Part shown: positions 1 to 965 of the stretch, in pieces | Position numbering within the stretch: the stretch's first letter is position 1 | Layout: each line of letters starts with the position of its first letter | DNA from: a virus | Lineage: Duplodnaviria; Caudoviricetes | Length of the DNA stretch: 64,000 nt | Direction: 5' to 3' (one strand) | IMG/VR virus record: IMGVR_UViG_3300025679_000005 | Made by a program: the position numbers and the translations under genes | Notes under the pieces: generated by a model | Seen by the model: only the letters and a program-made list of their open reading frames with translations | What the model was told of the DNA's origin: nothing | Databases searched by the model: none

Positions 1-66
1 GGATGTCACTAGCTGAGCCGTGAACGAGTCGTCGAAGGCCGCCTTGAGGTGGCTCAAGGTATTCAC
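1..66 (-). CDS. 5' fragment of a gene running off the window (MNTLSHLKAAFDDSFTAQLVTS...)
   Basis: GTG at 66-64 overlaps the TGA (65-63) of the response regulator in a GTGA coupling; the frame stays open to base 1. Confidence 0.45.
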   Translation of the reverse strand, partial: MNTLSHLKAAFDDSFTAQLVTS

Positions 67-965
67 TGATGTACTTTCTGAGTGGCATTGCTGGTGGCAG
101 CCTCGTAACTGGCCACGGCAGTAGCCACCATGCCGATCAGAGTGATAACCCCCACGATGAGTTTGGTTCGGTTGGACACCGTTGTCTGGTGCATGACGAC
201 GTGGCTCATTCGTTGAGTATCATCGGAGTGCTTGAGGGTGCTGTTCACCTCGGAGATGTTCCGTTCAGCAGTTCCTAGGCGATGGTCCAACAGGTCCACC
301 TGGGAACGCATGGACGGCCTAGTGGGGTGACCCTTGATAATCTCATGATCCAGGGTGTCGACAATCTTTTCGATACCCTTCAATCGTCCGTCTTGTTGAA
401 CGAGCTTGTTCGAAATGGCCTGAAGCTCTGTGAACAAGGATTTAGACAGGTCGGCGATGGCGGTGGTTGTCGCCAGAGTGTTGTCTCGAATTGCGACGTG
501 TTCCCCGCTTCTGTGGGCGGTGACGAGGTCGGCTTGAGCCCGTTCGAGCTTGTGGATGCTGACTACGTTCTCTGCCGGCATTCGGACGGTTCGGCGATGT
601 TTTTCCACTGCGAACACAATTCGGCGGAAAAGCTCTTCTTCGTCGGTGTACGACTTCAGGATATAGTCTGCTGCCCCCAGTTGGATCATGCTGACGGCCA
701 GCTCCCGGTCCTTGTTATGGGTCATCACGATGATGGGTACGTCGGGATATCGGGCAATGAGCTTCTCAAACGTCTCTTTTCCAGCAGAATCCGGCAGTTG
801 AAGGTCCAAAAGGACGCAGTCAATGTTGCCTGCATCTAGGTATTTGACTGCCGTAGCCAAGTTGCTGGCTTCACGGAACTTCGCCTCATTCATGAATTTG
901 TCTTCAAGAAGGTACCGAAGCAGTTGACGATCGGTGGCGCTGTCTTCTACAATGAGGATCCGCAT
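63..965 (-). CDS. Response regulator: receiver domain, coiled coil and C-terminal transmembrane helix
   Basis: Receiver motifs RILIVEDS, VLLDLQLP (phospho-Asp), VMTH and YILKS; heptad-like middle; hydrophobic LIVGVITLIGMVATAVA near the C-terminus. Confidence 0.9.
   Translation of the reverse strand: MRILIVEDSATDRQLLRYLLEDKFMNEAKFREASNLATAVKYLDAGNIDCVLLDLQLPDSAGKETFEKLIARYPDVPIIVMTHNKDRELAVSMIQLGAADYILKSYTDEEELFRRIVFAVEKHRRTVRMPAENVVSIHKLERAQADLVTAHRSGEHVAIRDNTLATTTAIADLSKSLFTELQAISNKLVQQDGRLKGIEKIVDTLDHEIIKGHPTRPSMRSQVDLLDHRLGTAERNISEVNSTLKHSDDTQRMSHVVMHQTTVSNRTKLIVGVITLIGMVATAVASYEAATSNATQKVHQ

Follow-up and report, generated by a model that had tools for sequence, protein, structure and literature searches.

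The 64,000-nt window of viral DNA analysed here is the reverse strand of G000:C1:14137-78136, G000 being a 155,231-bp IMG/VR virus record (IMGVR_UViG_3300025679_000005; Duplodnaviria, Caudoviricetes) that CheckV scores as 32% complete. At its left edge lies the gene for a response regulator, RR1, whose open reading frame (ORF) occupies exactly 63..965 on the minus strand, with 300 codons, an ATG start and a TGA stop (ORF listing and translation). The RR1 stop is overlapped by the GTG start of the next gene as GTGA, a 4-nt overlap. This second gene runs out of the window and encodes a histidine kinase; it is overlapped in its turn, also by 4 nt, by a third gene, encoding a free single-domain receiver that we term REC2 (Table 1). 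The whole 155-kb record holds exactly two receivers, RR1 and REC2, and one HisKA domain. RR1 is a real, conserved, phage-specific variant of response regulator within a phage-owned three-gene two-component system.

The receiver domain of RR1

The Pfam profile Response_reg (PF00072) matched RR1 residues 3-115 at E 7.9e-23, with 81.2 bits against a cut-off of 30.2; besides the receiver, Pfam shows no domain in RR1. A preliminary description of the locus had reported an intact receiver in this gene, and every residue that it named was found in place. The catalytic set is complete, consisting of E7-D8 (in VEDS), D54 (LLDLQLP), T82 (VMTH) and K104 (YILKS). Across an alignment of 28 family members D54, T82 and K104 never vary, and at least 90% have D8. 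RR1 was modelled with AlphaFold2 (AF2) from this same alignment, at a mean predicted local distance difference test score (pLDDT) of 80 for the whole protein and 86 for the tail modelled alone. The modelled receiver has the (beta-alpha)5 fold, five strands alternating with helices, and its best match among solved structures is the NtrX receiver (Z 11.1, root-mean-square deviation 2.9 Å, 118 residues aligned).

The helical tail and its membrane anchor

Behind the receiver follow about 145 helical residues, modelled as helices 131-153, 156-211 and 219-292. The preliminary description had proposed a helical or coiled-coil region closed by a C-terminal transmembrane (TM) anchor, in agreement both with these helices, which span residues 131-292, and with the hydrophobic stretch at 269-287. 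That stretch is the sole strongly hydrophobic one in RR1 (Kyte-Doolittle mean 2.15 over 19 residues), is found at the matching position in 15 of 15 close homologues, and is flanked by NRTK before it and 13 hydrophilic residues after it. By the positive-inside rule, the receiver and helices are likely cytoplasmic, held by the C-terminus as a tail anchor. In relatives the predicted outer end varies from 6 to 34 residues and is rich in P, K, T and S.

Conservation is uneven along the protein. Mean pairwise identity across the family is highest in the receiver, at 62%, and is 37% for the whole tail, where the only invariant columns among the 28 sequences are G212 and A150. Moderate conservation is seen in helices 1 and 2, in the turn with the invariant G212 and RPSMRSQVDLLDHR, and in the juxtamembrane NRTK; the second half of helix 3 and the outer end are poorly conserved. 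Two segments of the head, of 41 and 43 residues, are constant in length in 24-25 of the 28 members. The span from DHR to NRTK, by contrast with a reference of 36 residues, differs by +11 (three times), +22 (twice), -11, +7, +18, +28 and +29, together with only three odd values. A coiled-coil register is preserved by steps of 7 and 11 residues, so the changes in stalk length are mostly compatible with a coiled coil. We take this to mean that the head, made up of the receiver and the alpha-hairpin, is fixed and that the stalk carrying it is adjustable in length, because head lengths are constant, stalk steps are based on 7 and 11, and the outer end is variable; the outer end of the anchor would then have no conserved function.

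The tail histidines H151 and H228 were considered as phosphotransfer sites and rejected, as distant members do not conserve them. A homodimer prediction with two full-length copies of RR1 scored 0.25 against a mark of 0.42, which counts neither for nor against a dimer.

Profile and structure searches assigned the tail to no known family, in line with the preliminary description, which had recognized no output domain there. Pfam searches with the tails at E up to 10 returned coiled-coil noise only, and no NCBIfam equivalog was found at its cut-off. A sequence profile of the tail against the PDB gave at best E 0.004, to a coiled-coil tail needle. Foldseek searches with the tail against the PDB, AFDB clusters and BFVD returned nothing at E ≤ 0.05, all shape matches in the ESM Atlas were below a TM-score of 0.45, the best Z in a wide VIA-align search was 7.8 (noise level for helices), and a language-model look-up with the tail reached 0.81, within the range of shuffled controls. 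Comparison with ESCRT-III/PspA/Vipp1 gave Foldseek E values of 0.27-1.1 and, for the Snf7 core, Z of 7.3-7.7, values that count as noise with helical models. No near-identical DNA was found in GenBank phages, and tblastn gave generic receiver matches only.

The kinase and the free receiver

The kinase, P0042, contains the Pfam domains PAS_9 (E 3.7e-12), HisKA (2.5e-14) and HATPase_c (4.5e-26). It is a soluble protein with no hydrophobic segment. Its H, N, G1 and G2 boxes are intact, with H138 in SHDLREPL, followed by NLFSNS, DNGLG and GTGIGL, and all are retained in relatives. REC2 likewise has intact catalytic residues (D, D, T and K). The preliminary description stated that there is no histidine kinase in the window, which is literally true, as only the first 66 bases of that gene fall inside the window, but a complete PAS-HisKA-HATPase_c kinase gene crosses the window edge. 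It had also named the next gene, starting at 66 and coupled through GTGA, as a possible partner, and that gene is this kinase. Gene coupling, strict co-occurrence and intact catalytic sets make it very probable that the adjacent kinase phosphorylates the RR1 receiver.

The H-box SHDLREPL is invariant in relatives and has E where HisKA kinases have T/N. In tested HisKA kinases, the T/N of the motif H-E/D-x-x-T/N is required for phosphatase activity (PMC3510030). Judging by this residue, the phage kinase is possibly a kinase-only enzyme and a poor phosphatase; if so, a second receiver acting as phosphate sink or competitor would make sense.

A histidine of the PAS domain (in HQHHKDL, G000:C1 ~78190-78220) aligns with a histidine in five of seven PAS-bearing lineages, and a role for it as heme or metal ligand is conceivable. 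The domain contains no cysteine and so is not a LOV-type flavin sensor.

Distribution of the cassette

A tail-scored search of 5.8 billion protein clusters gave 14 relatives of 301-332 residues, each with a receiver and with 35-65% tail identity. The contigs of some relatives reach 476 kb, and an identical protein is on a contig of 465,854 bp. Exhaustive HMMER searching of 1.84 billion representatives with the tail yielded 25 clusters only; 14 of these are full-length (284-330 residues), with the tail beginning at about residue 93-141, after the receiver, and the rest, of 77-228 residues, are fragments. A profile search of the 5.8 billion clusters with the C-terminal half of the tail turned up no stand-alone relative at E ≤ 0.01.

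The gene order RR1-kinase-REC2 was kept in all nine lineages inspected, down to about 25% tail identity, and in seven of them RR1 and the kinase gene overlap as ATGA or GTGA. The kinase input varies: it is mostly PAS, but is absent in one lineage (where the kinase has 235 residues) and is an unassigned region of 240 residues in another. A fourth gene follows REC2 at locus L012 (7486-7947; the same as L021 5557-6018), encoding a tail-less paralogue of 153 amino acids (aa) that is 51% identical to the RR1 receiver.

Scanning IMG/VR with the kinase alignment produced 28 loci, which ORF profile searches divided into three groups. Ten loci, with contigs reaching 476 kb, carry the trio with the RR1 tail family. 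The layout of three genes recurs, with a different tail on the first protein, at seven further huge-phage loci (contigs of up to 436 kb); in this second family the receiver is followed by about 130 helical residues and a very hydrophobic C-terminal segment with a Kyte-Doolittle value of 2.7-3.5, and the kinases have GAF plus PAS inputs. The two tail families show no detectable similarity to each other (hhalign probability 0.4%). At a few loci the order is kinase, free receiver and then a receiver with some other extension (receiver-PAS or non-membrane). Because the architecture is kept with two tails of no detectable similarity, the comparison argues that membrane placement of the presumed phospho-switch is a selected property.

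In the second family (L023, L027, L028, L030, L033 and L037) a conserved gene for a protein of about 340 aa always stands directly upstream of the tethered receiver. One motif of this protein, KFYE...RRWGALTDS, recalls WGR domains, but Pfam gives no match.

Three RR1 homologues are on IMG/VR virus records, and the remaining ones are on metagenome contigs whose genes look phage-like in context. A narrow scan of 185,579 GTDB species genomes with two short patterns found none, which is weak evidence. It had been envisaged that homologs might prove to be ordinary chromosomal regulators beside a kinase. There is indeed a kinase beside each one inspected, but the contexts are those of phages and the species genomes gave none. 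The GC content of the cassette (53.5-55.7%) and its third-position GC (GC3) are like those of the rest of the phage genome. By this composition the cassette is native to the phage.

Genomic neighbourhood

Upstream of RR1, the presumed promoter site shows no sigma-70-like site on the RR1 strand and no motif conserved across lineages. The genes near the cassette in the window include those for a chaperonin, a ribonucleotide reductase, a ligase and a helicase. Arrays of tRNA and transfer-messenger RNA (tmRNA) genes enclose the cassette, in antisense orientation, in four lineages; at loci L007 and L008 these arrays hold up to 12 tRNAs plus the tmRNA, with the tags ANDNATVQLRKAA and ANDNAALAAA.

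Table 1. The RR1-kinase-REC2 cassette and adjoining features. Positions are those of the window unless prefixed G000:C1.
Feature	Position	Strand	Basis or remark
Start of kinase gene, first 22 codons	1..66	-	Whole gene G000:C1:78071-79129, 352 aa, P0042; Pfam and translation
RR1 gene, tethered response regulator, P0001	63..965	-	Receiver, helical head, stalk and C-terminal TM anchor; ORF call, Pfam, 28-member alignment
C-terminal end of RR1, 13 residues, hydrophilic, variable, predicted outside the cytoplasm	66..104	-	Least conserved region
C-terminal TM helix, residues 269-287	105..161	-	Kyte-Doolittle; runs on from helix 3 in the models
Helix 3, residues 219-268: RSQVDLLDHR start, variable stalk, juxtamembrane NRTK end	162..311	-	Region-wise conservation, stalk lengths
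Conserved turn, residues 212-218 (invariant G212, then RPSM)	312..332	-	Alignment; non-helical in both models
Linker and helices 1 and 2 (residues 122-211), alpha-hairpin head, motifs LERAxA..TAHxSGEH	333..602	-	AF2 and constant segment lengths
Receiver (REC) domain, residues 1-121; D54 codon 804-806	603..965	-	Pfam, AF2 fold, match to NtrX receiver, conservation
Upstream intergenic region, 210 nt, presumed promoter site	966..1175	-	Bounded by the opposite tRNA-Leu(taa)
tRNA-Leu(taa)	1176-1258	+	tRNA scan
Second tRNA-Leu	3310-3396	+	Just upstream of the cassette
tmRNA gene, tag ANDNYYAAAA	3423-3817	+	Just upstream of the cassette
Free single-domain receiver REC2, P0043, 151 aa	G000:C1:79126-79581		Outside the window; Response_reg 9.2e-20

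Between the cassette and the second tRNA and tmRNA genes is an HNH homing-endonuclease-like gene, 1308-2213 (-), matching phrog_10822 at E 1.8e-47. It has C-terminal repeats resembling a helix-turn-helix and a GC content of 49% against 54%, and HNH genes recur at this place in relatives. A 174-aa protein encoded at 2355-2879 (+) has no Pfam or PHROG match; at 51-64% identity it is found within a few kb of the cassette in four lineages and is possibly an accessory to it. Farther along the window, three large ORFs, 44263-47625, 50589-53942 and 59029-61866 (all +), carry Intein_splicing, Hint and LAGLIDADG_3 signatures, with no host-protein assignment by Pfam.

Downstream of the cassette there is a cupin or cysteine-dioxygenase-like gene (L001 4630-5112, equivalent to G000:C1:79629-80111; phrog_4786, E 1.5e-13), kept only by close relatives, and an FGE-sulfatase-family gene (L001 8875-9753, equivalent to G000:C1:83874-84752; E 1.8e-36). 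FGE-sulfatase is also found near the L007 cassette. In five lineages a protein of 88-133 aa with the motif ALAVQKGWP is encoded 0.1-3.3 kb downstream of the cassette (L014 4172-4441, L015 9395-9673, L018 5892-6158, L020 8119-8520 and L021 5267-5560); it has no homologue in the 155-kb record.

A model for the cassette and its alternatives

We think it probable that RR1 is the membrane-tethered output of a self-contained branched two-component pathway of the phage, composed with the soluble kinase and REC2 from three translationally coupled genes. The cytoplasmic kinase, whose input here is PAS, would autophosphorylate on H138, and the phosphoryl group would be divided between the two receivers. 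RR1 would be inserted tail-first into the inner membrane, presenting the receiver and hairpin head at the cytoplasmic face on a coiled-coil-like stalk. Phosphorylation of D54 may alter the packing of the receiver on the head and in this way switch, at the membrane, either self-assembly or a protein-protein interaction; since neither an enzymatic nor a DNA-binding part is present in RR1, its output would have to be a phospho-dependent contact or self-assembly at the inner membrane face. REC2 would compete for phosphate, as a sink and setter of thresholds or else as a second, diffusible output.

Several points weigh against this model. An output receiver cannot be told from a sink receiver by sequence alone. 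Pfam, PDB, AlphaFold and structure searches gave no functionally characterized homologue of the tail, and no partner or target of the RR1 head was found. The cassette sits among tRNA/tmRNA and replication genes and not beside envelope or lysis genes. The anchor itself is the sole link of the cassette to a membrane event, because lysis and envelope neighbours are lacking and four endolysin families (Amidase_2, Phage_lysozyme, SLT and M15_4) are absent from the 155-kb record. A late envelope or lysis-timing event would be the single most likely process under control, though as a specific proposal it is doubtful.

The preliminary description likened the coiled coil and C-terminal TM helix to holins and XhlA, and an unlikely extension of this is that RR1 is itself a holin, antiholin or XhlA-like protein whose assembly is phosphorylation-gated, with burst time tied to host state. 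The architectural part of the likeness stands, as this is the layout of small phage membrane proteins. There are also weak matches to phrog_2990 in 7 of the 28 family members (best E 1.9e-6), matches of some family tails to the 'hemolysin' phrog_1193 and phrog_937 at E ~1e-3, language-model similarity of 0.79-0.81 (noise range) to XhlA-like and DUF7201 clusters, and, in one distant relative, a VanY/M15 peptidase gene 3.5 kb from the cassette. The XhlA Pfam profile (PF10779), however, reaches E 2.8 and 8.6 bits against a cut-off of 34.7 with the best family tail, does not list the tail of RR1 itself at E up to 10, and has no match in the 155-kb record, and the C-terminal half has no stand-alone homologue in the 5.8 billion clusters. 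With marginal PHROG matches, a Pfam score below cut-off and no stand-alone relatives, the likeness to XhlA is therefore architectural only. The position of RR1, antisense in a tRNA array among replication genes, and the missing endolysin families count against a lysis protein as well, and to our knowledge known holins are not built in this way, with 268 residues in a cytoplasmic domain and 13 in the outer end. We found no support for a lysis link in this record. If instead RR1 were a membrane dock or phosphate sink for the soluble kinase, REC2 would be the true output, diffusible and CheY-like, acting via protein contacts. REC2 is as strictly conserved as RR1, the related viral loci that combine kinase and REC2 with a different third gene fit this arrangement, and so does the lineage with the added tail-less paralogue. 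The conserved polar motifs and fixed length of the RR1 head, on the other hand, speak for a specific interaction and not for a passive tether, and two tail families without detectable similarity both have a membrane anchor, whether acquired or retained. We rate this alternative as quite unlikely.

Detocs comprises the kinase DtcA, the stand-alone receiver DtcB, proposed as a phosphate buffer, and the receiver-effector DtcC, and a minority of Detocs operons have transmembrane effectors (bioRxiv 10.1101/2023.01.24.525353). The parts of the trio match these, which would fit a conflict module in which the kinase senses a rival phage or a host defence, the TM receiver is a membrane-damaging or excluding effector, and REC2 buffers leakage; the variation of kinase inputs among lineages around a kept output is also what an arms race would predict. 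We hold this to be distinctly improbable, because the gene order differs, with the receiver-effector first, the RR1 effector has a single TM segment and no enzymatic domain, and the module is a vertically kept core set of a phage clade, of native composition, and not a mobile island. PADLOC returned only generic receiver-level matches (PDC-M60B and SduA) and none named Detocs, the Detocs models of that release being unverified. The preliminary description had supposed, for want of a phage kinase, that the phage taps a host phosphorelay. That RR1 is an orphan receiver fed by host kinases is compatible with the sequence as far as cross-talk from host kinases or acetyl phosphate goes, and one relative has a sensor-less kinase. 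Yet a complete, translationally coupled kinase gene is present in every lineage, followed by a second receiver, and the apparent absence of a kinase is a window-boundary effect only; since the phage owns a kinase, the supposition loses its basis, and we regard it as extremely improbable.

Returning to the membrane-tethered branched pathway, its broadest form can be put forward only tentatively: huge phages may use a branched phosphorelay of their own to read the state of the infected cell, and an undescribed class of tail-anchored regulators, which arose or diverged beyond recognition at least twice, may switch a membrane-proximal step of infection.

Comparison with known systems

Complete two-component systems are a hallmark of cells. 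In the literature searched, including the main survey of huge phages, we found no description of a conserved phage kinase with two receivers of which one is membrane-anchored, nor any paper on membrane-anchored response regulators encoded by phages, and that survey makes no mention of two-component genes. The cassette would thus be a virus-encoded sensing circuit and not a hijacked host one, and RR1 a new type of output, in which a receiver is joined to a tail-anchored helical head. With its three defined proteins, the cassette would also allow one to ask what is measured by huge phages during infection and which event at the membrane is under their control.

Individual features recall several bacterial systems. 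In pairs of the Cph1/Rcp1 type, a soluble HisKA kinase is followed by a single-domain CheY-like receiver. The phage cassette is similar in the H-box of P0042 (SHDLxEPL), in the REC2 motifs LDLNLP, ILTxS and NAYxxKP, and in the placement of the receiver gene directly after the kinase; unlike those pairs it has no phytochrome input, has an extra, membrane-anchored receiver upstream, and is phage-encoded. CheA of Sinorhizobium meliloti, with CheY1 and CheY2, forms a branched pathway that includes a phosphate-sink receiver. There too one kinase is combined with two receivers, one of which possibly drains phosphate, but the cassette has no CheA, CheW or receptor, and one of its receivers is membrane-anchored.

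FrzS and AglZ of Myxococcus combine a pseudo-receiver, lacking the phospho-acceptor set, with a long coiled coil, and WspR and DgcR have a receiver-stalk-GGDEF arrangement ending in an enzyme. Like RR1, all four place a receiver-type domain before a helix that passes on a signal or a localisation. None of them is tail-anchored in the membrane, however, and none shows a sequence or fold match to the RR1 tail. In XhlA, as in RR1, a phage-encoded coiled coil is continued by one TM helix at the C-terminus; RR1 is four times larger, is fused to a receiver and lies outside a lysis cassette.

By design, the closest system is Detocs, which likewise has one kinase, one receiver without output and one receiver fused to an effector that does not bind DNA. 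Detocs is a bacterial defence system, whereas huge phages keep the cassette as a conserved core module; by comparison with Detocs, the input of the cassette kinase is PAS, GAF-PAS or absent, and the putative effector consists of a helical head held by one tail anchor.

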